Made by a program: the position numbers and the translations under genes. The notes under the pieces were generated by a model, which did not search any database, was not told the DNA's origin, and saw only the letters and a program-made list of their open reading frames with translations. Of a DNA stretch of 64,000 bases, positions 3,224-24,519 are shown one piece after another. Origin of the DNA: Candidatus Thorarchaeota archaeon (GTDB lineage Archaea; Asgardarchaeota; Thorarchaeia; Thorarchaeales; Thorarchaeaceae); assembly GCA_019057475.1 (NCBI GenBank), contig DXJO01000006.1, positions 1-64,000 of the forward strand, given 5' to 3'. Position 1 is the stretch's first letter, and the number at the start of each line of letters is the position of its first letter.

Positions 3224-4519
3224 TTACAATCCCTTGACGTAGAGTTGTGAAACTGTCTTGAAGACATCTTCAACTCCCTCTCCTGTCAAGCACGACGTTT
3301 CAAGGAACGCTACTGGATGAAGCCGTCCATCCTCACCTAGCTTCTTTGCTAGCTCTTCTGCAAAGACGAATCCTTCGTCTCTGGAAATAGGTGGCTCCTC
3401 TGCGTCCTTATCGGAATCGCTTCTGAGGTCAGTCTTGTTACCAACAATGATTATCGGAGGAAGGCCCTCGATGGTAGATGATGCTTCCTTCAACCAGAAT
3501 TCCAGACTCTGAAAGCTCCATCTGTCTGACGCGGAATAGACGATTATCAACGCGTCAGCTCCTTCATAGAATTCCTTTCTAGCAATATCCATCCGTACAG
3601 CTTCGTCAAACGACCAGACACTAAGCATGACCCGGTGGTCGATTAGCTCGAAGAGTCTCTCGTGAATGTACTGTATGGTCTGGGGCGGTTCTGATTCCCT
3701 TTCCTCAATCATGGGCTCTAGCCCGGCCTTTTCTAGGAGACTTCCCTTACCTACCCCATCCTCTCCAAGGATTATTGCCTTGGCCGTCACCATAGGCGTG
3801 ATTACATGCTTGGGAGTAGCTACCTTCTTGGTGGCTTTTTCCTCGGGCGCTTGAGCCCACGTTATTTCTGGTTCTGCAAGTTGCCCCTCCGCGGTTTCGA
3901 GGACCTCTGGATTAACCGGCCCCTCAGAATCGGGCGTAGAAATCACTTCTTCCGTTAGAGAATTGAGTGGGATTACGGCTGGGGTAGTCGAGTGGGTGCC
4001 TGCTGCGGCCTCAACAACTTCGTTCCCCCGGAGGCTAATGCGTATCGCTTGAGCCTTGTCCATCTTCTTGCTTTGTTTTGTACTGGCTGCCATGAATGAA
4101 TCACTCATGGATTCAACGACTGATAGTGCCTCTGTAATGTCTTTGAAGTCATGCTTGCCCATTGACACTACTTCTATTTCCGGAGGTTCAATTTCGGAAC
4201 TTTTGATGAATGTGGCTGCCACCAGCTCCTCTTTCACAACCCGTGTTTCAATGGCAGGTGGTGTTTTGGGCTGAGGTTTAGGTTCCTCCTCCACCACGAC
4301 TGCCCTCGTTTCCGGAACTCCTATCCTGATCATGGTGTCTTTCAAGATTCCTGGAGGGAGCCTCTTGCCCAAAAATAGGAAATATTTCTGCAATTCGATT
4401 TGCATATCATTGAAAGATTTGCCTTTCAGAGGAATCTTCTTTTTGATAATGCCTTTGTCGCGTACTTCAATGTAAGTGGGACGGAGTGTTAACGAGATTG
4501 TTGTTCCAGGCACTATCAA
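3224..4519 (-). CDS. Rab/Ras-like small GTPase domain with long N-terminal extension (atypical motifs)
   Basis: C-terminal domain: KAIILGEDGVGKGSL (G1), FYEGADALIIVYS, IIIVGNKTD (G4), FLETSCLTGEGVEDVF (G5). Confidence 0.85.
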   Translation of the reverse strand: MIVPGTTISLTLRPTYIEVRDKGIIKKKIPLKGKSFNDMQIELQKYFLFLGKRLPPGILKDTMIRIGVPETRAVVVEEEPKPQPKTPPAIETRVVKEELVAATFIKSSEIEPPEIEVVSMGKHDFKDITEALSVVESMSDSFMAASTKQSKKMDKAQAIRISLRGNEVVEAAAGTHSTTPAVIPLNSLTEEVISTPDSEGPVNPEVLETAEGQLAEPEITWAQAPEEKATKKVATPKHVITPMVTAKAIILGEDGVGKGSLLEKAGLEPMIEERESEPPQTIQYIHERLFELIDHRVMLSVWSFDEAVRMDIARKEFYEGADALIIVYSASDRWSFQSLEFWLKEASSTIEGLPPIIIVGNKTDLRSDSDKDAEEPPISRDEGFVFAEELAKKLGEDGRLHPVAFLETSCLTGEGVEDVFKTVSQLYVKGL

Positions 4520-8397: not shown

Positions 8398-8700
8398 ATG
8401 GAACGAAGGAAAAAAGGCTTCACATTCGCAATACTTGGCATTTTGCTTTTTCTGATTTCATTAGTGCTCTTGCTTCAGATTCCGGATTTCTATCTCGGAT
8501 CCCTGGTAACTATGTTCGTTGCTGTGGTGCTTATTGGTCTTGGAGGTGCCATAGCAAAGGGGTATGACACTAAGCTTGAAACAACAATAGAGGAATGCTA
8601 CTTCTGCAATGGTTCAGGAAAGATTGAGGCCGCAAAGGGTTCTGAGGTTTGCCCTAGATGTGGAGGTACGGGCAGAGCATTGCCTGAGGATTCTTCTTAG
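8398..8700 (+). CDS. Small 2-TM membrane protein with DnaJ-type zinc finger
   Basis: Two hydrophobic helices, then CYFCNGSG and CPRCGGTG (CxxCxGxG twice). Confidence 0.8.
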   Translation: MERRKKGFTFAILGILLFLISLVLLLQIPDFYLGSLVTMFVAVVLIGLGGAIAKGYDTKLETTIEECYFCNGSGKIEAAKGSEVCPRCGGTGRALPEDSS

Positions 8701-8747
8701 TAACTACTCTGATTCATTGATTTCATCACCTGTAAGGTTGTTTAGAT

Positions 8748-9458
8748 TTGAGAGAGAAACTAGTGATTGCACATCGTGGAGCATCTGGCTATGCACCTGA
8801 AAACACTCTGAAAGCGTTCAAGACTGCATGGAAAATGAGCGCAGACATGATTGAACTTGATGCGCAGCAAACCTCAGACGGTTGTCTTGTATGCATTCAC
8901 GATTTCGAGTTGCCTAGGACAACAAACGGTGAAGGCTACGTTGGAGAGATCACATATCGTGAGATTAAGGAATTAGATGCGGGGCAGGGTGAAAAAGTGC
9001 CACTGCTGAGTGAGGTGCTCGATTTTGCAAGAGGCCGGATTGGAGTGAACATCGAGATCAAAGCTCTGAACGTTGAGAAACGAATTTTGGAGCTAGTTAC
9101 TGAACGTGAGATGCTTGACTCGGTCATGTTCTCCTCGTTCATGCACAACACGGTCAGAGTAGTCAAGAATCTCAATACTTCCGCAAGGACTGCAATCATA
9201 TTGTCCGAACCCAGAGATGATGCGGTACGTTACACTCTTGGTCTTGGAGCAAACGCCATCAACCCGCCTTTCGAAACCCTCACCCCAGAGCTTGTAATGA
9301 GCGCTCATGAAGCGCACCTCGAAGTATTCCCCTATACTATGAATGACGCTAGCTCCATGAGGAAGTTACTATCCATTGGAGTGGACGGTCTGATAACAGA
9401 TCTACCGGATGTTTGTGTGAAGGTCGTCGAAACCTTTCTCCAGAGCCAGGATGCTTAA
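8748..9458 (+). CDS. Glycerophosphodiester phosphodiesterase
   Basis: IAHRGASGYAPENTL, IELD, CIHD, NIEIK, GVDGLITD. Confidence 0.93.
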   Translation: MREKLVIAHRGASGYAPENTLKAFKTAWKMSADMIELDAQQTSDGCLVCIHDFELPRTTNGEGYVGEITYREIKELDAGQGEKVPLLSEVLDFARGRIGVNIEIKALNVEKRILELVTEREMLDSVMFSSFMHNTVRVVKNLNTSARTAIILSEPRDDAVRYTLGLGANAINPPFETLTPELVMSAHEAHLEVFPYTMNDASSMRKLLSIGVDGLITDLPDVCVKVVETFLQSQDA

Positions 9459-14452: not shown

Positions 14453-14629
14453 CAAGTTTCACAGAGTTGGCGAAGGTATACAACTTACTTTTAATACTGA
14501 GATAACGGGAACCATTGAACGAGTTGATGAGGAGGACCTACGATAACCGATAACCCCGGACCGACCAGAAGGCCACACGTACCATTGATTGATGCTGACA
14601 TCACTCCCCGTCTCTCTGATTATTCCAAG

Positions 14630-15835
14630 ATGTCCAATGAGAAGGTGCTTTTTCTCCTCAATAGGGGCACAGGAGTGTCTCCCTATTCTCATCAGTTCAT
14701 GCCGGAGGAGATAGATCCCCAGATACTCTCAGGATTCATTTCAGCCATCACTAGTTTCATGGACGAAGCATCAGGACCAGAGAAGACACATCTTCAAACA
14801 GTCGACAGCTCAGACGCCTCGTTTCTTCTGGTGGGGGGGGATTGGATAATCGGAGTCTTGTCAGTTTCGAGGGAAACAAACGAGGCCCGCAGTAAGCTCC
14901 GGCGGGTTGTTAGGGAGTTTGAGGAACAGTTCTCGTCGCTCAAGAATGCAGATGGCTTCGAGCTCAGTATGTTCAAGGGCTTCGACAGATTCGTGATGGA
15001 TCTTTTCCTATCTGACAGAATATCGGAACGAACGCTTATTCTCAAGGGCTGGGACTGGCCTAAATTCTGTCGTTCGTTTGACGTTCCCAGTGAGAGTATT
15101 AGAGTAAACAAGCTCCTGAATCAAGCCGAAGACAAGCAATCAGTTATGCAGGTAGCTCAGTCACAAGGGTTGAGCTTAGACGAAGCTATTAGCCTCGTGT
15201 CAATTGCATTTTGGAAGAATGCTCTCTATCTAAACTACGTGCCTTCAGACAATGACATACTTGCTCTCTCAGAAGGCTCATCAACAGTTTTGTTCAGGAA
15301 AGAGAACCCCCTTGAGCTATCGCCCGAAACGGTCAGAATTTTGGGCGCCTTGGATGGTCGCAGACCGCTGTCCATATCTTTAAAAATGCTCGGTGGCCAA
15401 GGTGTGGAAAGAGTCCTTCTGGAACTTGGCAGCCTGATCAATAGAGGATACCTTCAGAATATATCACTTGAAAGAAGATTGGTCCTTGTCAACGAGTGCA
15501 TTCTTTCTCAGCTCTTTCAAATTTGTATTCAGGCTATGGGGGCTGGAAAGGCAACTATGAGCCTCTATGCTGCAATTAAGGCAAGGGTTGAAACAAATCC
15601 ATGGACCAGTAGAATCAGACTTGTAGAGGGCGCCATAGGACACAGTGTAATTGATGTGAGCATGACCCCTGCGGATCTAGATGACCTGTCTGCTGCCTTG
15701 GAGCTTCTAACAAACGATCTCGAAAAAGAGCTGGGCAGAGTGTCTGGAAAAAGTAACGCCAAATCGATGCTACTCTCAGTGAGAAAACATTGTCGCGAGA
15801 GTTGGAGACCCCATATCGGAATTGCATTCTTCTGA
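14630..15835 (+). CDS. Longin-like domain protein with winged-helix repeats
   Basis: N-terminus FLLNRGTGVSPYSHQF...DPQILSGFISAITSFMDE typical of Asgard longin-like domains; later ILGALDGRRPL...LINRGYL; start may be 14585. Confidence 0.7.
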   Translation: MSNEKVLFLLNRGTGVSPYSHQFMPEEIDPQILSGFISAITSFMDEASGPEKTHLQTVDSSDASFLLVGGDWIIGVLSVSRETNEARSKLRRVVREFEEQFSSLKNADGFELSMFKGFDRFVMDLFLSDRISERTLILKGWDWPKFCRSFDVPSESIRVNKLLNQAEDKQSVMQVAQSQGLSLDEAISLVSIAFWKNALYLNYVPSDNDILALSEGSSTVLFRKENPLELSPETVRILGALDGRRPLSISLKMLGGQGVERVLLELGSLINRGYLQNISLERRLVLVNECILSQLFQICIQAMGAGKATMSLYAAIKARVETNPWTSRIRLVEGAIGHSVIDVSMTPADLDDLSAALELLTNDLEKELGRVSGKSNAKSMLLSVRKHCRESWRPHIGIAFF

Positions 15836-15837
15836 AA

Positions 15838-17646
15838 TTAGCTACCTGCCGGTTCCTCTTCACAGGACATAAGCAACATATTCGTTACACTTAACCTGAG
15901 CTCATCCTCCGACACGGAGCCGGTTAGCGTCGTTTTGCAGATGCGGATTGTCGGGAGTGCAGGAAGATCCTCCGCGGATAGCCCAGATTCGGGGTCATCG
16001 ATATTGATTACCTCCATAATGAAATGGTTCAAGCCCATCTCGTCCAGAATCCCAAGGAGCGCATTATGAACTGGGCCGCAGAAGATACAATGATCGGACT
16101 TGTAGAAGGTGATGCATGCGGCTTTTCCGCACGGAGTCAGCATTGACTCGCTCCACGCAGGAAGAGAAATAACGAACCTGCATCCTTGTGACTGATCTCC
16201 TATCACTCTGTCCTCGACCCATACTCGTCCGTCAAGGCTGCTTATTGTTTGATCTACTAGGGTTAGTCCCAGTCCTCGTCCAGCCGCCTGCTTACCTTGA
16301 GCTCCAGTTCGTTTGAAGATAGTTTCTTTCATGCTGTCCGGTATTCCAGGGCCTTTGTCAATAAACTCAATATTGACTGCCCTCCCGAAATCATCGAATC
16401 TAGCATTAACTTCAAGCTCGACCTCCTCATGTGGGTCGTACAGAAGTGCGTTATGGATGATGTTGAAGAAGGCGCTCCAGAGATACATATGACCTAAGAC
16501 CTCGAATGCATCATCCTCGATATTCGAAGTAATCTTCAGCGTCTTCGACGGGACATCTCTGCTGGCCTCTGTCACAGCTCGCCTGAAATGAGGATAAAGG
16601 TCGGTTTTTTCTGGTACGGGAGGTGCGTTCTTTATTGCAATTAGCGCACGCATGTTCGCTATCATTCTGGCGGCTCGTCTAACATTCATGGCTGTTTCAT
16701 TAACGGATGACTGAACGTTTGCAGGCAGCTTTACTAGAGAATTAACAAGATCCAGAGTATAAGTTGTGTTTTGATTGACGCTGTTTAGGTCTTGAGTCAT
16801 TACATCGAGATACAGCTCAGCTCGATCTATCGCGCTACTTTCTCTTGCTTCCGCCGCCTTCCTCCTATCGATGTTTAGTGCCATGAAACCTATTTCAGAG
16901 CGCTTTGCCGCATCAGCTGAGAGCGGGTTGGAAGCAATGTTCACCCACACAAAGTGGCCATCTATATGCTGCATTTGTATTTCCACATCTCTCAGTGCCC
17001 TCCCACGAAGTATCTCTCGTATTGCCTGCTGGCCGGAGCATTTCTCATCCTCAGCGATGAACGCCTTGATGTTCAAACCGACCATGTTCTTAGTTTCGTA
17101 TCCAAGCAGCTTCTCAGCTGCCTCATTGGCATCCTGAATAACTCCCTTTGGACTTAGGGTGAAGATGGCTAATGGTGAGGAGTCGTAAAGCCCCCGGAAC
17201 CGAGTTTCTGATTCCTCGGCTGCTTCCTTGAGAGACAAGCTTTTCGTAACATCTCTGATGATTGCTACAACAGCAGGCGAATCGTGGAGTATGAAGTCAT
17301 TGGTGCTTACATCCACGCTGATTAGTTCACCATCTTTTCGCTGAAGCCGTGTATGGAAGTTATCTCGCCCCTTTTTCTCGCCAATGAATGCTTGCAGCTT
17401 CTCCGGGTGATATCGGTGTTCCAGAGGGTCGATAAGCTCATCAATGAACAGCCCTTCTGCGGTTTCACGTTGATACTTTAGCATTTTTGCGAATGCTTCA
17501 TTCGCGAATACTACCTCCTCATCTTGGATGACTGCTATCCCGTCATTAGCCATCTCCAAGATGCCGCGAAGAAGGTCTTCGCTACGCGAGGTCATATCTT
17601 GATCACCAGACGATGGAGAACTGTCGTGTGGGCGCTTCTTCACCAA
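15838..17646 (-). CDS. PAS-PAS sensor histidine-kinase-like protein with C-terminal thioredoxin-like domain; H-box His replaced by Gln
   Basis: Two PAS domains; N box NIIHNALLY, G1 DKGPGIP, G2 GRGLGL; H box reads LDVMTQDLNS; tail CIFCGP...ALPTI. Confidence 0.88.
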   Translation of the reverse strand: MVKKRPHDSSPSSGDQDMTSRSEDLLRGILEMANDGIAVIQDEEVVFANEAFAKMLKYQRETAEGLFIDELIDPLEHRYHPEKLQAFIGEKKGRDNFHTRLQRKDGELISVDVSTNDFILHDSPAVVAIIRDVTKSLSLKEAAEESETRFRGLYDSSPLAIFTLSPKGVIQDANEAAEKLLGYETKNMVGLNIKAFIAEDEKCSGQQAIREILRGRALRDVEIQMQHIDGHFVWVNIASNPLSADAAKRSEIGFMALNIDRRKAAEARESSAIDRAELYLDVMTQDLNSVNQNTTYTLDLVNSLVKLPANVQSSVNETAMNVRRAARMIANMRALIAIKNAPPVPEKTDLYPHFRRAVTEASRDVPSKTLKITSNIEDDAFEVLGHMYLWSAFFNIIHNALLYDPHEEVELEVNARFDDFGRAVNIEFIDKGPGIPDSMKETIFKRTGAQGKQAAGRGLGLTLVDQTISSLDGRVWVEDRVIGDQSQGCRFVISLPAWSESMLTPCGKAACITFYKSDHCIFCGPVHNALLGILDEMGLNHFIMEVINIDDPESGLSAEDLPALPTIRICKTTLTGSVSEDELRLSVTNMLLMSCEEEPAGS

Positions 17647-17763: not shown

Positions 17764-18210
17764 CTAAAACAATCTTGGTCGGAAATCCTTCCTCAGATGA
17801 ACCTTTTTGTGATTCTCCTTGAAACCGGAGCTAAGGTATATCTGGATTAGGTCAGCTCGTTTTTCGCTCACAATTGTATCAAGAACTCGGAGCCCCTTCT
17901 CCTCGGCAATCTTTGCTATCTTCTGCAACATTCTTGTACCTAGAATGGTTTCCTCCAATTCATCTTCTATTTCGAAGTGCTGAATGTGTCCAACCAAGCC
18001 AATTGATGGATCTTTCCCCACGTCGAGTTTTAGTGATGCTACGATCAACTCCCCTGCAACTGCAACCACGTACATCGTTTCCTTTGGTGCACCTTGGGTC
18101 AGCAGAACATTCCGAGTCGATAGATCGTGGAACCTGATTCCTTCTCTGGAATAGAACTCCTCGAGTGCGGTTCTATCATGTGCTGTTGCGGGACGTACGT
18201 CAATCTCCAT
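17764..18210 (-). CDS. GNAT-fold protein
   Basis: VRPATAHD N-terminus, ILGTRMLQKIAKIAEEKG, IYLSSGF. Confidence 0.7.
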   Translation of the reverse strand: MEIDVRPATAHDRTALEEFYSREGIRFHDLSTRNVLLTQGAPKETMYVVAVAGELIVASLKLDVGKDPSIGLVGHIQHFEIEDELEETILGTRMLQKIAKIAEEKGLRVLDTIVSEKRADLIQIYLSSGFKENHKKVHLRKDFRPRLF

Positions 18211-18493: not shown

Positions 18494-19249
18494 CTATTTC
18501 TCGATTATATTGTAGATGTCAGTGATGCGCTTCGTAAACTCATTGTCTGGATGCTTCAGTGTCACAACATACCTACTGCCAACCTCGATTAGGAGGGGCA
18601 ATAGAGGTATGATTGTGGCGACCTTTGTCTTGAACTTCCTCTCAACCTCTTTGATAATGGCCTTGTCTTCATAGATGCCTGGTTTCTTGTTTATCACGAT
18701 ATGGATGTCAGGAACCTGCAATTTCCGGGCGACGCTGAGAGTAGCGGCGGTTCCGAGCAAGTCCTGTTCGTCAATCCGTGCTACAACAAAGAGATAATCT
18801 GCTGTTGCCATTGAGAGAAGCGTTTCCCGGTCAAGGCCAGGGTGAGTGTCGATTATTAGGTAATCAAGATCCTTGACTTTGATTACGTCAGAAAAACCTC
18901 TTCTGAGGTCGCTCACTTCATAGCCTTCCCTAAGAATCCGCGTGATGTCGGTTGCTGTCATAGAGCTTGGGATTAGGAATAGTTTGCCCCTCTTGATTCC
19001 AAGTCGTTGTGTCATGTCGATGCATGTGGCGCCGATGTCACACTCGCCTCTCAAGTAAGCATTGAGAGTATGCTTCATCTTCTCTCTGCCCATACCGAAG
19101 ATCACATGTATGCCGGGCGAGGCTAAATCTGTGTCCATGACTGCAACTCTCTTGCCATCAAGAGCCATTATTGCGGCCAAGTTGGCGGCGATATTGGACT
19201 TCCCTGTTCCTCCACGAAAACTATGCATGCTAATGATTTCTCTTGGCAC
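18494..19249 (-). CDS. MinD/ParA-family ATPase
   Basis: Deviant Walker A SFRGGTGKS, VAVMDTD, Walker B LIIDTHPG, VINK. Confidence 0.92.
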   Translation of the reverse strand: MPREIISMHSFRGGTGKSNIAANLAAIMALDGKRVAVMDTDLASPGIHVIFGMGREKMKHTLNAYLRGECDIGATCIDMTQRLGIKRGKLFLIPSSMTATDITRILREGYEVSDLRRGFSDVIKVKDLDYLIIDTHPGLDRETLLSMATADYLFVVARIDEQDLLGTAATLSVARKLQVPDIHIVINKKPGIYEDKAIIKEVERKFKTKVATIIPLLPLLIEVGSRYVVTLKHPDNEFTKRITDIYNIIEK

Positions 19250-19255
19250 TTTATC

Positions 19256-20548
19256 TCACCTGACATGACTTATGATTCGTTCTTTCTCCCACGTGACGTG
19301 GCTGCCCAGCTCTCGCAGAACCTCGAGTATTCTCGTAGCAGGGATTTGAGACCTCTCCGAAATTTCTTGAAGCGACAGGCTTCCGGTGCAGAATTTCCAG
19401 ATTGAATCAACAACGTCAAAGTCCCTTTTCTTAATTCCTATAACCTCGAGATAGGCAGAAAAGCGATCATCCCTCTCATCCATGACTGGGAATATTTTCG
19501 TTATGCGGACCAATCCCTTCGCAATCAGCTGAGCTAGTATCTCATAGATCTGTTCCCGTTCCAAGCCGCTGCTCTCTTGGATGTCTGCTATTGTCCTATT
19601 TTTACTTAGAGAGTTGACAATATTATGGCCGCCTTCACGCATCTTGTCTGGCATATTTGCAAATACAATTACTGAGTCGCGTTTGACTTCATCAAGCGGA
19701 AGCACAGGAACCACTGCATCGTATTCATAGAACGCAATCGGTCTCTCCATTCGCTCAGGGTCAAATCTCTTGATATCAAAAAAGCTAGTCATTTGCAAAC
19801 GTGTCACAAAGGGGCTTACAAGTTCTGCATACGTCTTCTCCGAGAGTCCTAGTGCAACAACAAACGCACAGATCCCCTTGTTTCTCACTCTGATAAGCAT
19901 GAATGAATTGGACGGGTCAAGACATGAGTGCTCTACCATCTTGATTGTTTCTGATGATTCGGAACTAGCGAAAGGCGGTGTGAGATCGAGCACAGCTTCA
20001 AGCTCGTACGCTCTCAAGTTGGAAACCACAACGTAGCCATCCCAAGTGACCATGCCCCCTCGCAGAATATCCCTGTTCAATTCAATCTCCGATAGAGTCG
20101 CTTTCAGATTTCTAATGTCATCTGCCGGTAGCAACGCCGTTCTATACCGTCGTGCTAAACCGGGAACTCCATCGAATTTCTGAAGAGTTGCTTCGACTAC
20201 GTCCGCAAAGGGCTTGAACACCCTTGAGTTCGGGAGCTCCTTCAGGAGCTCGCTGTAGAATATACTAACGAACTGCTCCGCAATGTCTTTCAGGATTACC
20301 CGGTGTATCTCGCCACTGTCTTCCTCAGCCACAAGAGCAATGAAGTACAGGTCGCCCTTTCGCTCCCACACCAGTTTGTTCGAGGAGAATGACATTACTC
20401 TAATTTGGTCCTGCCCGACTTCTTCGGCGAAAGAACTCACCGCTGACAGGAAGGCAGCTACAAGATCGTCAAGTTTCTTCGTTCCCATGACGCTGTAGTG
20501 GAAGATTAGAATGCCACCTTCACGTAGAACGATTATCTCCTTGACCAA
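19256..20548 (-). CDS. Longin + roadblock-like + tandem winged-helix protein
   Basis: MVKEIIVLREGGILIFHYS...LVAAFLSAVSSFAEE (longin); ILRGGMVTWDGYVVVSNL (roadblock-like); two C-terminal wHTH-like repeats. Confidence 0.75.
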   Translation of the reverse strand: MVKEIIVLREGGILIFHYSVMGTKKLDDLVAAFLSAVSSFAEEVGQDQIRVMSFSSNKLVWERKGDLYFIALVAEEDSGEIHRVILKDIAEQFVSIFYSELLKELPNSRVFKPFADVVEATLQKFDGVPGLARRYRTALLPADDIRNLKATLSEIELNRDILRGGMVTWDGYVVVSNLRAYELEAVLDLTPPFASSESSETIKMVEHSCLDPSNSFMLIRVRNKGICAFVVALGLSEKTYAELVSPFVTRLQMTSFFDIKRFDPERMERPIAFYEYDAVVPVLPLDEVKRDSVIVFANMPDKMREGGHNIVNSLSKNRTIADIQESSGLEREQIYEILAQLIAKGLVRITKIFPVMDERDDRFSAYLEVIGIKKRDFDVVDSIWKFCTGSLSLQEISERSQIPATRILEVLRELGSHVTWEKERIISHVR

Positions 20549-20655
20549 GGCAATGGCCTCCGGTGCTGTGAACCTGTGCCAGTTGGCTCATACTCACTTA
20601 TAGATTTGTGCAGACGAGCGGCTCGTATGAATCAACTGAGATTTGGAAGTGTTTC

Positions 20656-21567
20656 TTAATCAGCTATAGGTGTATCTGCCAAACCGCTGACCTCTATGTA
20701 ACTCCAGTCGACTTCCGTTCCTAGCTTCGCGAGAACCTCGTAGAGGCGGTCGGCAGTCACTCCTAACCGTTCGCTCACATCCACGACAGATCTTTCGCCA
20801 TTACATAGATGTTTTGCTCTTTCCAGCAGTTGGTATTCCTTGCTTGGCAGTCCTACCAAGTCAAGGAACGCATTGAACCTAGCATCCCCGCTTTCAATGA
20901 CCGGGCACATCTTGGCGATTTTTAAAACTCCTCTGATGGTTAAGTACTCTATCACTTCTGAGATAGCATTTTCCTCAATATTCAGTTTGTTCGTAATACT
21001 ATGGATAGAGATGTTGCCATCAATTGCCGTGAGAATCCGGGCGCCCAAGCTCCCAAAGTCTCGGTGTAGCTCATCAAGAAAGCCTCCTGTCCTTATTGCA
21101 ACGTCTAGAGCTTCCTTTCGAACAGTTGGGATAACATAAGCACTAAGATTAGAGATGATTATCAGCACACTTTCGTAGTACTGGAAAACACCTTGGACCT
21201 CGGTACTAAAGTCTTCGAAAACATCCAGGATTGGTATTTCCATCCTCAGTTCAGTTTCATACCTCGCCATGAACTTGCGGCTCAACTCCCTCAAGACTGC
21301 CCTTAACACCTTCTTTGAAGCATGATTGTCAACCAAGAAGATGAAGAGGAACTCTGGATTGAATTGCTCGTATAACAATTCTGAACCTTCGAACGTCAAG
21401 CTTCTGATGGATCTCTCACCGAATTCTGTGGCAAAGCTCGTGATAGCGCTGAGAAAGCCTGACAAGAGAGAGTCCATCTTGCGAACATTAGTTCTCGAGA
21501 AATGAAAGATTGGTAATCCTCCTGCAGTAATTACCATAAACTCTTGGACTCCGAGCTTGCCAACCAA
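20656..21567 (-). CDS. Longin + tandem winged-helix protein, paralogue of 19256..20548
   Basis: FMVITAGGLPIFHFS...LLSGFLSAITSFATE; ILTAIDGNISIHSI...LTIRGVL; C-terminus aligns by eye with the neighbour. Confidence 0.75.
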   Translation of the reverse strand: MVGKLGVQEFMVITAGGLPIFHFSRTNVRKMDSLLSGFLSAITSFATEFGERSIRSLTFEGSELLYEQFNPEFLFIFLVDNHASKKVLRAVLRELSRKFMARYETELRMEIPILDVFEDFSTEVQGVFQYYESVLIIISNLSAYVIPTVRKEALDVAIRTGGFLDELHRDFGSLGARILTAIDGNISIHSITNKLNIEENAISEVIEYLTIRGVLKIAKMCPVIESGDARFNAFLDLVGLPSKEYQLLERAKHLCNGERSVVDVSERLGVTADRLYEVLAKLGTEVDWSYIEVSGLADTPIAD

Positions 21568-21727
21568 CTAGCATCTCTCCTTGCTTCTCGACCCGAGGTA
21601 TCTTGTCTTTAAGGTATTGCTTTTCTCAGCCGCACGAATTGCTACCTTCGTCAACGCATGTGATGTCCGAAAGGTCCATATTGTCTTGCATGCGGAGCCA
21701 CATAACGCCCCGGGAAAGGTGACATAT

Positions 21728-23329
21728 ATGCTCGAGTACAGGGAGTTTCCAGTGAGAGCCGCTCTAACATACATACTATTCTCTCCCAGTGTTGCTTTTG
21801 CAATGTTAGTAATTGTTAAGGTGATAGAGGGTTCACTGCTACCATTGACGCTGCTGGAACACCACGGGCTGCTTGGTCTTGGAGCTTTGGCAGCAACTTT
21901 CTCGCTACTAGTGGCTGGCTTTATTGTTGACAGGCTTCAAAGAAAGTATATCCTGATGTTTCTAAGCGCCTTGGCCCCCGGTATCGTTGGCTTGCAGGGT
22001 TCGATGATTGGATTCCCGAATGAGTACTCCCCCCAAATAGAAACTGCACTTGTGATTTCTTCGTTTGCGTGTCTCGCATTTCTAATGGTGAGCTGGACAG
22101 TCCAACTGAACCGGACAGTAGTCGTGAAGTTTCGCGGAAAGGTTAATGCTGCATTTCTTGCTTTCGCGCTTGTGGTCTTTCTTGTCTACTATCTTCTATC
22201 TGCTATGGGAGTTGTTCTCATGGGGAGTATCCTGTTGTTTCCTGCAGTGATTTCATTTGTTGCCATGATAGCCGCCGTGACATTGCGGCCCTGGAAGCTC
22301 GACCAGATTCCGTTGGCTGTGCAGGGCTCGGTAATGAAGTACTTCCGTCCAATGGCCTTAGTCTTGGCAGCACATATGCTATGGTTCTTCGTTGCGAAGC
22401 TCAGGTTTCAAGCGGAAGGACTGGGAACTCTGAGCCAGTCGGTAGGTTTCGGGATTTTCGAGGTAGGCATTCTTGTCGTTGGTGTTGTTGGGGCCGGACT
22501 TCTTGCAGACTTCCAAGGACGAAAAAGCGCCTTCAGTACATTGATCCTGCTAATGAGTTTGCTGACGATTTTCGGATCTGCGATGTATGAATTCCTCTTT
22601 GCTGATTCCGGTTCACTGTGGGGTGCAGGCCTACTAGTATTCGAACGGTTCATAGAGGGCTATATGCTAGGTCTTTGTTTGCTATTCATCTGGTCAGAAC
22701 TCGGTCCTGCGAAGACCAAGGGTCTTAGGCTCTCCCTCGTTTGGCTTTTCTTTCTAGGCTATATGTCTCTCTTCTGGGCAGTGAATCTTGAGGCTACAGT
22801 GTTTGGATTCACATTCCTTGTCCCCGAGGAACTCACCATATTTGGAGGTAACATAGCAGTATTTCTCTCTCTTATCGCCCTATATATGATTGGGCCTCTG
22901 CCGCAGATACTGGGCCGAGAAATCGAGATGGAGGAATTGGACTTGGACTTTGATGACCGGCAGGTCAAACGGACTGTGGATGCTTTTGTTGGTAGAGATG
23001 ATTTCGCTTCTATTCGGTCGCAGCTCGATGTGTTAGATGCAGGAGCTGAGCTGAATGAGGTTAGTGACAAGGATATGAGCGATATACTTGGAGATGATTT
23101 CGCTAAGATGCTGCCGCTTAAGCGAGTGCCAGGAGTTGGTCCAAATCTTTCGAAGAAGCTTCGACGTGCTGGGTACAAATCTGCAGCCCAGCTATCCGGA
23201 GAAACTCCAAAACGACTTGCAGAGAAAATTGACGGTCTTGGCTTAGCTCGGGCTGAGAAGATAATCAGCGATGCCCAAAAGATTGTGAAAAGAACTGTGA
23301 AGCCGACGCACAAGCGGAATAAAATCTGA
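21728..23329 (+). CDS. MFS-like polytopic membrane protein fused to a C-terminal helix-hairpin-helix domain
   Basis: About 12 TM with GFIVDRLQRK and GLLADFQGRK (MFS motif A-like); acidic linker; LKRVPGVGPNLSKKLRRAGY...IDGLGLARAEKII; ATG 21728 preferred over the track start 21581. Confidence 0.8.
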   Translation: MLEYREFPVRAALTYILFSPSVAFAMLVIVKVIEGSLLPLTLLEHHGLLGLGALAATFSLLVAGFIVDRLQRKYILMFLSALAPGIVGLQGSMIGFPNEYSPQIETALVISSFACLAFLMVSWTVQLNRTVVVKFRGKVNAAFLAFALVVFLVYYLLSAMGVVLMGSILLFPAVISFVAMIAAVTLRPWKLDQIPLAVQGSVMKYFRPMALVLAAHMLWFFVAKLRFQAEGLGTLSQSVGFGIFEVGILVVGVVGAGLLADFQGRKSAFSTLILLMSLLTIFGSAMYEFLFADSGSLWGAGLLVFERFIEGYMLGLCLLFIWSELGPAKTKGLRLSLVWLFFLGYMSLFWAVNLEATVFGFTFLVPEELTIFGGNIAVFLSLIALYMIGPLPQILGREIEMEELDLDFDDRQVKRTVDAFVGRDDFASIRSQLDVLDAGAELNEVSDKDMSDILGDDFAKMLPLKRVPGVGPNLSKKLRRAGYKSAAQLSGETPKRLAEKIDGLGLARAEKIISDAQKIVKRTVKPTHKRNKI

Positions 23330-23398: not shown

Positions 23399-24322
23399 CT
23401 ATTCAGACCGGTGTCCAGAATAGTACGCAAGACCCGTGCCACCTAAAATATCAATGCCTTTCAGATGCTTCCCGCACACATTACAAGACAATGATATCTT
23501 TGGCTCGTCGGATGCGGCTCCACATTTGTTGCATAGGGGTTCAACATCCATAACTGCTAGCTCATCAACCTTGATGGGCGTTTTACAATGTTGACACAAT
23601 ACCTCTAACAAGTCATCAGCGATTACCGTGTGGAATTGCGCCCTACAATGAGGGCAATACGCTGTATAGACCTTATGAAGGTCATCCGAATCGCACTTCG
23701 GGCAGAGGAGATTCACATTGATCTCGGAGCTTCCACATTGAGTGCATTCGACTCTTCTGCCGAATGTCTTTGGAACAATAACGCCCTCGTTATCTAAATC
23801 CTTCAGCTTGCGAGTCACTTCTTCAACATCTTGACCTAAGTAATCTGCGGCCTCAGGATACCTGATGATTCCCCTCATGACATGCTTTGGTTTGATTGAA
23901 GTCAATCTACCGTCAATCATATCTTTTACCATTCTCTGAATCCCTGAATCAGAAAGCAGCTCTTTGCCACGCGTTTCCTGGAGGAGTTCCTTAAGCCGCT
24001 CATAAGCATGTTTTATCTCGTTGTCCCATTCCTCTGCATTGAAGTTAATCTCGCTCACTAAACGCTCTAGATTCCGCTCGACAACGAGCGGGTCATCATC
24101 GTCATCAAGGAGGACAGCAATACAGTTTGGTGGTTCCAAGTAAGAAACAACAAGGCCTCTCTTCATTTTGGTGTAGCCGAGCTGAGCTTCCTGGTTCACT
24201 CCATGTCCCATAAAGATGACTAACGCTTCTTCGCCCTTCAGCTCCTCTTCTTCGGGATATACCCTGCCCACCATTGGTCCAAGAGTGTCGTCCCACCAAA
24301 TTGAAAAGATTGCTTTGGGCAT
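23399..24322 (-). CDS. Longin/uDENN-like domain fused to TackOD1-like wHTH plus multi-zinc-ribbon domain
   Basis: Start MPKAIFSIWWDDTLGP after AAAGGAG RBS; six CxxC pairs (CTQC, CPKC, CPHC, CQHC, CNKC, CNVC) after a wHTH-like segment. Confidence 0.72.
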   Translation of the reverse strand: MPKAIFSIWWDDTLGPMVGRVYPEEEELKGEEALVIFMGHGVNQEAQLGYTKMKRGLVVSYLEPPNCIAVLLDDDDDPLVVERNLERLVSEINFNAEEWDNEIKHAYERLKELLQETRGKELLSDSGIQRMVKDMIDGRLTSIKPKHVMRGIIRYPEAADYLGQDVEEVTRKLKDLDNEGVIVPKTFGRRVECTQCGSSEINVNLLCPKCDSDDLHKVYTAYCPHCRAQFHTVIADDLLEVLCQHCKTPIKVDELAVMDVEPLCNKCGAASDEPKISLSCNVCGKHLKGIDILGGTGLAYYSGHRSE

Positions 24323-24519
24323 TGTTTGGGCTCCTTTCACGAATCGCTGGTTGAGTGAGCGTGAGTTCACTGAGATGCCCTTTCTTAATAGGCTTCGGTT
24401 GACGAACCCTTGCACTCTCCGCACTGGTTCAAGTCTTTCTTCACCGAAGGGTATAAATCCGCACTGAATGGACCGACCGGTTACGAGAGCAGCTAAGGCA
24501 ACTCAAGGATGTCAAATTT

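Follow-up and report, generated by a model that had tools for sequence, protein, structure and literature searches.

The locus at positions 18494-21567 of a Candidatus Thorarchaeota genome (assembly GCA_019057475.1) raises the question of what two proteins resembling subunits of the GATOR1 complex are doing beside an ATPase of the MinD/ParA superfamily. The window examined here is a stretch of 64,000 nucleotides, positions 1 to 64,000 of contig DXJO01000006.1, and an earlier note on it had proposed a longin heterodimer, of the kind that acts as a GAP on small GTPases in eukaryotes, regulating a positioning ATPase of the Min/Par type. The locus is laid out as follows.

20656-21567, minus strand: gene B, 303 aa, with a longin domain (about 6-132) and tandem winged helices (about 143-292)
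19256-20548, minus strand: gene A, 430 aa, with a longin domain (1-127), a roadblock domain (about 138-258) and tandem winged helices (about 275-420)
18494-19249, minus strand: ATPase gene, 251 aa, MinD/ParA superfamily (SIMIBI), Arg-signature family
21581-23329, plus strand: divergent membrane gene, encoding a multi-pass membrane protein with a C-terminal helix-hairpin-helix domain
17764-18210, minus strand: GNAT-like acetyltransferase gene, found 3' of the ATPase in most Thor genomes and not in Hermodarchaeota (Hermod)

B, A and the ATPase gene are co-directional, and 6 bp separate the stop of A from the start of the ATPase. The membrane gene stands head-to-head with these genes in both Thor and Hermod, where its products show full-length homology at about 24% identity (best E 4e-25), and it is a probable fourth member of the module; its true start is probably ~140 bp further downstream than listed. 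The GNAT-like gene is peripheral to the module. Promoter, terminator and repeat scans near the locus gave chance-level results only, with no operator-like or centromere-like repeats.

A further longin and winged-helix protein (14585-15835; 416 aa), which has several paralogues in the genome and matches nothing in Pfam, is encoded convergently with a PAS histidine kinase (15838-17646), and the pair is kept at this place in the window's close relatives. The gene at 23399-24424, kept near the module in Thor, encodes a winged helix and a TackOD1 zinc-ribbon output domain after an unassigned N-terminal domain. Elsewhere in the genome, contig C12 (L117:4577-6387) carries a second tandem pair of longin plus two-winged-helix paralogues (290 and 275 aa) with no adjoining ATPase, and contig C45 (L116:4839-5882 and 8520-9449) carries two roadblock-like proteins with a winged-helix pair, each adjoining small V4R-like genes. 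The earlier statement that no small GTPase accompanies the ATPase holds at the locus itself and fails beyond it: the 431-aa product of 3224-4519 has a C-terminal Ras-family GTPase domain, its N-terminal half being unassigned, and the genome contains 24 Ras-family matches.

The description of A and B as paralogues sharing longin and C-terminal motifs proved correct. All the quoted motifs are present, the two proteins are 34% identical over the N-terminal 128 aa and 30% over the C-terminal 136 aa, and the profile-profile probability is 100%, the sole large insertion being the middle domain of A. Fold searches confirmed that this extra domain, placed by the earlier note in the paralogue just before the MinD-like gene, is roadblock-like, with Z 12.3 both to MglB and to an Asgard roadblock. 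AlphaFold models of A and B had pLDDT values of 82 and 79. In VIA, the longin domains matched the VAMP7 longin with Z 13.7 for A and 14.9 for B (rmsd 2.5-2.6 over 116-122 residues); this match is generic and not GAP-specific, and the best matches are generic trafficking longins and Mon1-Ccz1/CPLANE. A DxRF..L..G motif, invariant in both paralogues, marks the point where the first winged helix meets the second and contains Arg362 of A and Arg230 of B.

The winged helices could point to transcription control resembling that of FleN-FleQ, with A and B binding DNA and the ATPase serving as activator or anti-activator. Consistent with this, A matches Pfam TrmB above the cut-off (44.9 bits), FleN is one of the ATPase's relatives with a solved structure, and the partner of the bacterial ATPases described below is MarR/IclR-like with a basic tail. 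However, in A and B the winged helices, recognition helices included, are neutral to acidic, which favours protein binding over DNA binding, they descend from an NPRL2-like protein-interaction module, and the scans near the locus gave no operator-like repeats. We consider transcription control distinctly unlikely.

The relation of A and B to NPRL2 and NPRL3 was traced at the levels of fold and profile. The best eight Foldseek matches of B were all GATOR1 chains (E 2e-6 to 5e-5), with whole-chain alignments but TM of only 0.27-0.31, and the NPRL2 segments that the earlier note had quoted were found in the PDB chain of NPRL2. Direct routes to NPRL2 failed or were unspecific: a Pfam NPR2/NPR3 search of the genome gave no direct match, the A and B profiles opened no specific route to NPRL2 in the PDB, and in a search with a profile of the winged-helix pair, Lrp and Z-alpha domains ranked above NPRL2 (E 0.014). 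The best 50 VIA matches of the A/B longin domain do not include NPRL2. Among 65 A members, 22 matched HTH_NPRL3, with E 4e-5 at best. The profile check against NPRL2 succeeded by an indirect path, in which a search of 1.8 billion proteins led to a remoter Asgard family that combines a longin domain with three winged helices (longin+3wH), including one member from Helarchaeota. The A profile matches this family at E 1e-19, B matches it with a probability of 99.3% and lacks only the first winged helix, and the top match of the family's own profile is human NPRL2 (E 4e-10, residues 158-331). This transitive link shows that the homology of the C-terminal halves of A and B to NPRL2/3 through the intermediate family is real, and together with the Foldseek result it upholds the NPRL2/GATOR1-like architecture first suggested. 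On the same profile evidence, A and B are not the nearest Asgard relatives of NPRL2; these are the longin+3wH proteins, which are sited away from any Arg-signature-type ATPase.

NPRL2-like proteins of Thor are already known from the literature. Liu et al. (bioRxiv 10.1101/2020.10.19.343400) described Asgard proteins with a longin and an NPRL2-type C-terminal domain in most Thor genomes and proposed that they work with prokaryotic two-component signalling, in a text without mention of MinD. Since the present genome has further longin-winged-helix genes, their family may be A/B or another longin-winged-helix family. A and B share with NPRL2-NPRL3 of GATOR1 (yeast Npr2-Npr3), themselves a paralogous pair (PMC8534245), an N-terminal longin domain followed by repeated C-terminal winged helices. 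They differ in having two winged helices and not three, in the roadblock insertion of A, in a pairing that is not obligatory, in their linkage to a SIMIBI ATPase and not a Rag GTPase, and in lacking the GP motif and the longin arginine finger. In longin GAP complexes (NPRL2/3, FLCN/FNIP, C9orf72/SMCR8), the arginine finger is placed on the beta4-beta5 loop. The corresponding turn in A and B is short and has no invariant Arg (no more than 31 of 98 A sequences, and 0 of 61 B sequences, have Arg there), and before longin strand 2 A has Gly-Ile-Pro/Leu and B has Gly-Gly-x-Pro, with no adjacent Gly-Pro in either. As the GP motif (PMC12290439) and the loop arginine are hallmarks of longin GAPs (PMC12290439, PMC8534245), the NPRL2-like activating mechanism of the earlier note was not borne out.

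The ATPase also departs from its best-known relatives. Its Walker A (FRGGTGKSN), switch I (DTD) and Walker B (DTHPG), which are accompanied by the family motif RxDxQDxxG, agree with the P-loop GxxGK[ST], switch I DxD and Walker B of the SIMIBI MinD/ParA superfamily; the protein scores above the Pfam cut-offs for AAA_31, ParA and CbiA and aligns full-length to archaeal MinD (1hyq). MinD/MinE, ParA/ParB and FleN/FleQ likewise combine the SIMIBI fold, switch I DxD and Walker B with a partner gene alongside. Unlike in these systems, the signature Lys is replaced by Arg (in 108 of 108 motif-bearing sequences counted), the protein ends with its core and has no C-terminal membrane-targeting extension, and the partner has winged helices. 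When the protein is aligned with archaeal MinD, Gly also takes the place of the helix-7 Asp that restrains the signature Lys (D152 in E. coli). The score was 74.7 bits against an archaeal MinD cut-off of 201.75, and 43.8 against a ParA cut-off of 180.

Judged by its sequence, the ATPase is not MinD or ParA proper but a member of a bacterial RGGTGKS family. Its relatives number thousands, including those of Nostoc, Deinococcus, Streptomyces and Rhizobium, and members of the family are annotated merely as 'MinD/ParA family protein' (Nostoc, Deinococcus, Streptomyces, Chloroflexota). The bacterial proteins are 35-50% identical to the Thor ATPase, have the same motifs and also lie in signalling gene clusters, with genes for STAS/anti-sigma antagonists, SpoIIE phosphatases, GlgX, HAMP/Cache/GAF sensors, cNMP-binding proteins and ECF sigma factors as neighbours. 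At some bacterial loci (L142:2092-2850, L129, L151, L163, L174), a second, more divergent ATPase with the P-loop RRGTGKT or similar is encoded in tandem.

These features bear on a further possibility, that A/B are the adaptor of a system for DNA segregation (ParA-type) or for division-site placement (MinD-type). Winged-helix adaptors occur in archaeal partition systems, for example AspA of pNOB8, and the ATPase has the MinD/ParA fold. Nevertheless, it falls far below the archaeal MinD and ParA cut-offs, the repeat scans gave nothing centromere-like, MinE had no match in the genome, which is 96% complete, no ParB-type gene adjoins the ATPase (ParB-like domains lie on other contigs), and the system is absent from most Asgard families. 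A segregation or division role is highly improbable, and the low scores, the lack of a membrane tail and of MinE and the signalling operons of the bacterial relatives likewise tell against the Min/Par positioning ATPase of the earlier note.

The association of A and B with the ATPase was assessed by surveying 400 Asgard genomes. The Thor family, a second Thorarchaeales family and the distant Hermodarchaeota were found to have full-length A, and the module does not extend beyond Thor and Hermod. Among the 82 informative Thor and Hermod genomes, which are related to one another and are not independent samples, a longin-winged-helix gene (A or B) lies directly 5' of the ATPase in 79, with one gene inserted in 2 and the locus split in 1, a Thor genome that has the ATPase away from A/B. 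The linkage, which the earlier note had proposed to check by a synteny survey, is conserved far above chance. B-A-ATPase is the commonest order in Thor, where the A and ATPase genes overlap or almost abut. Because a wider block is also kept within Thor, linkage there is by itself weak proof; the linkage in Hermod is stronger evidence, since just A, the ATPase and the membrane protein are still together and the other neighbours differ. In some Thor genera (L077:1508-4840, L078, L054), genes for PAS histidine kinases and for a receiver protein lie between B and A, and in one genome only an ADP-ribosylglycohydrolase gene (L052:6387-7340) lies between A and the ATPase.

At all 18 Hermod loci, as in the second Thorarchaeales family, A alone stands beside the ATPase, and B alone occurs in nine Thor genomes, indicating that a heterodimer is not required; an obligatory longin pair is not supported, and a non-essential A-B dimer, or homodimers, may exist. 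This result weighs on the explanation in which the A-B heterodimer would be a GATOR1-like activating protein that applies an arginine finger to a positioning ATPase. The GATOR1 chains at the head of the Foldseek matches of B, the prevalence of the B-A-ATPase order in Thor and the paralogy of NPRL2 and NPRL3 (PMC8534245) are all in keeping with such a protein, whereas the A-only and B-only versions, the missing GP motif and invariant loop Arg, and an ATPase without MinD/ParA hallmarks are not. We regard it as improbable. With NPRL2-like proteins linked to a SIMIBI ATPase, the locus appears to be a genuine hybrid of prokaryotic and eukaryotic modules, though probably not built as a paired GTPase activator.

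Outside Thor and Hermod, the ATPase has a different neighbour. When the genes around 82 non-Thor, non-Hermod ATPase loci were clustered (39 of them with full flanks), a winged-helix family of ~110 aa emerged, standalone or fused, with a C-terminal basic stretch and the motif PxxIWxxL; its likeness is to MarR/IclR winged helices, and Pfam has no dedicated family for it. This small partner lies on the ATPase strand in 48 of the 82 loci, within 300 bp in 38, and is present in 25 of the 39 fully flanked loci and missing from the other 14, and no longin-winged-helix gene was found at these loci. Examples are L143:57-392, L156:4665-5000, L094:7227-7835 and L140:1518-4448, and the domain is also embedded in ~970-aa proteins without a Pfam match. 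Within Asgard, strong matches to the small partner occur in Helarchaeales-type families only, four of them adjoining the ATPase. No match was found in this genome, in 85 other Thor-family genomes or in the second Thorarchaeales family, and the weak matches in four Hermod genomes are all on contigs other than that of the ATPase. Beside the ATPase, the small partner and the longin-winged-helix neighbour are mutually exclusive. The pairing of ATPase and small winged-helix protein in bacteria and Helarchaeota is new here, no prior description having been found, and a literature search returned no paper with the ATPase motif string and none on the A/B-ATPase linkage.

Orthology between the second winged helix of A or B and the small partner was ruled out (probabilities 39% and 10%). 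The first winged helix of A matched the partner with a best probability of 95%, and ordinary winged-helix proteins of the genome match the partner profile better. The likeness between the small partner and the winged helices of A/B is no more than generic, so that a replacement would have been by analogy and not by orthology. In the ATPase tree, a quick search with long Asgard stems in which most 'bacterial' labels come from metagenome contigs, a single Asgard clade (SH-aLRT 99) lies nested within presumed bacterial sequences, and Hel is sister to Thor, the second family and Hermod (support 99).

Our preferred explanation is partner replacement, in which an NPRL2-like protein is now a regulator or effector of the ATPase by direct contact; we hold it with about even confidence. 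The locus would be a nucleotide-switch signalling module built around the Arg-signature MinD-like ATPase. In the simplest history, the ATPase and its small partner would have been acquired once, A would have replaced the partner, and B would have arisen by duplication in Thor. The small partner would already have been lost, and A in place, in the ancestor of Thor and Hermod, and B would be a later Thor duplicate able to stand in for A.

Complex prediction bears on the contact that partner replacement supposes. The ATP-bound ATPase dimer with A scored 0.39, and the best of three controls scored 0.00. In the calibration, 58 of the 80 solved pairs reached the mark, as did 2 of the 110 mismatched ones, and 7 of these solved pairs and both mismatches lay at 0.60 or below; the runs agreed in at least 87% of contacts, with partner pLDDT of at least 74, and the output contained no interface. 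The predicted binding of A to the ATPase, which the earlier note had proposed to check by modelling, is weakly supported, and given the synteny prior the score modestly raises the odds that the two bind. Alternatively, A/B and the ATPase may share an operon and a pathway without contact, with A/B serving small GTPases encoded elsewhere. The complex score falls where both mismatched pairs passed, the longin domains are closest to generic trafficking longins and Mon1-Ccz1/CPLANE, the genome has its complement of Ras-family proteins, and the related longin+3wH proteins are not near such an ATPase. By contrast, mere co-regulation sits poorly with an adjacency that outlives the loss of A or B, the loss of other neighbours and the distance between Thor and Hermod, and that coincides with the absence of the ATPase family's usual small partner. 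We think co-regulation alone rather unlikely.

Under partner replacement, A and/or B would bind the ATP-loaded ATPase dimer as a regulator or read-out. The winged-helix part would be the likelier contact, given the analogy with the lost partner and the invariant junction motif, and the longin and roadblock domains may connect the switch with either the longin/roadblock/small-GTPase network of Asgard or the divergently encoded membrane protein. The change from Lys to Arg, together with the loss of the Lys-holding Asp, suggests that the ATPase provides its own trans-acting basic residue, in which case an external arginine finger would be unneeded. PAS-kinase and receiver genes within the operon of some Thor genomes and the signalling contexts of the bacterial ATPases both speak for this reading.

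A bolder version of partner replacement, possible but doubtful, is that a protein homologous to NPRL2/3 binds and controls a SIMIBI ATPase of bacterial derivation whose native partner it has displaced, with the junction arginine (362 in A, 230 in B) possibly activating and the longin/roadblock face reading the small-GTPase network. If so, a scaffold of the GATOR1 lineage would act on a non-Ras switch. As the module is limited to Thor and Hermod and the nearest Asgard relatives of NPRL2 are the three-winged-helix family, it represents a side branch and not the ancestor of GATOR1. The work exposes a widespread bacterial two-gene unit, the Arg-signature ATPase with its small winged-helix protein, in culturable hosts such as Deinococcus. 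It also offers a concrete, testable role for a family of Asgard 'eukaryotic signature' proteins, about which there have so far been only functional guesses by analogy, and suggests that the NPRL2/3 scaffold could serve switches besides small GTPases, with GAP chemistry being a separate, later addition.
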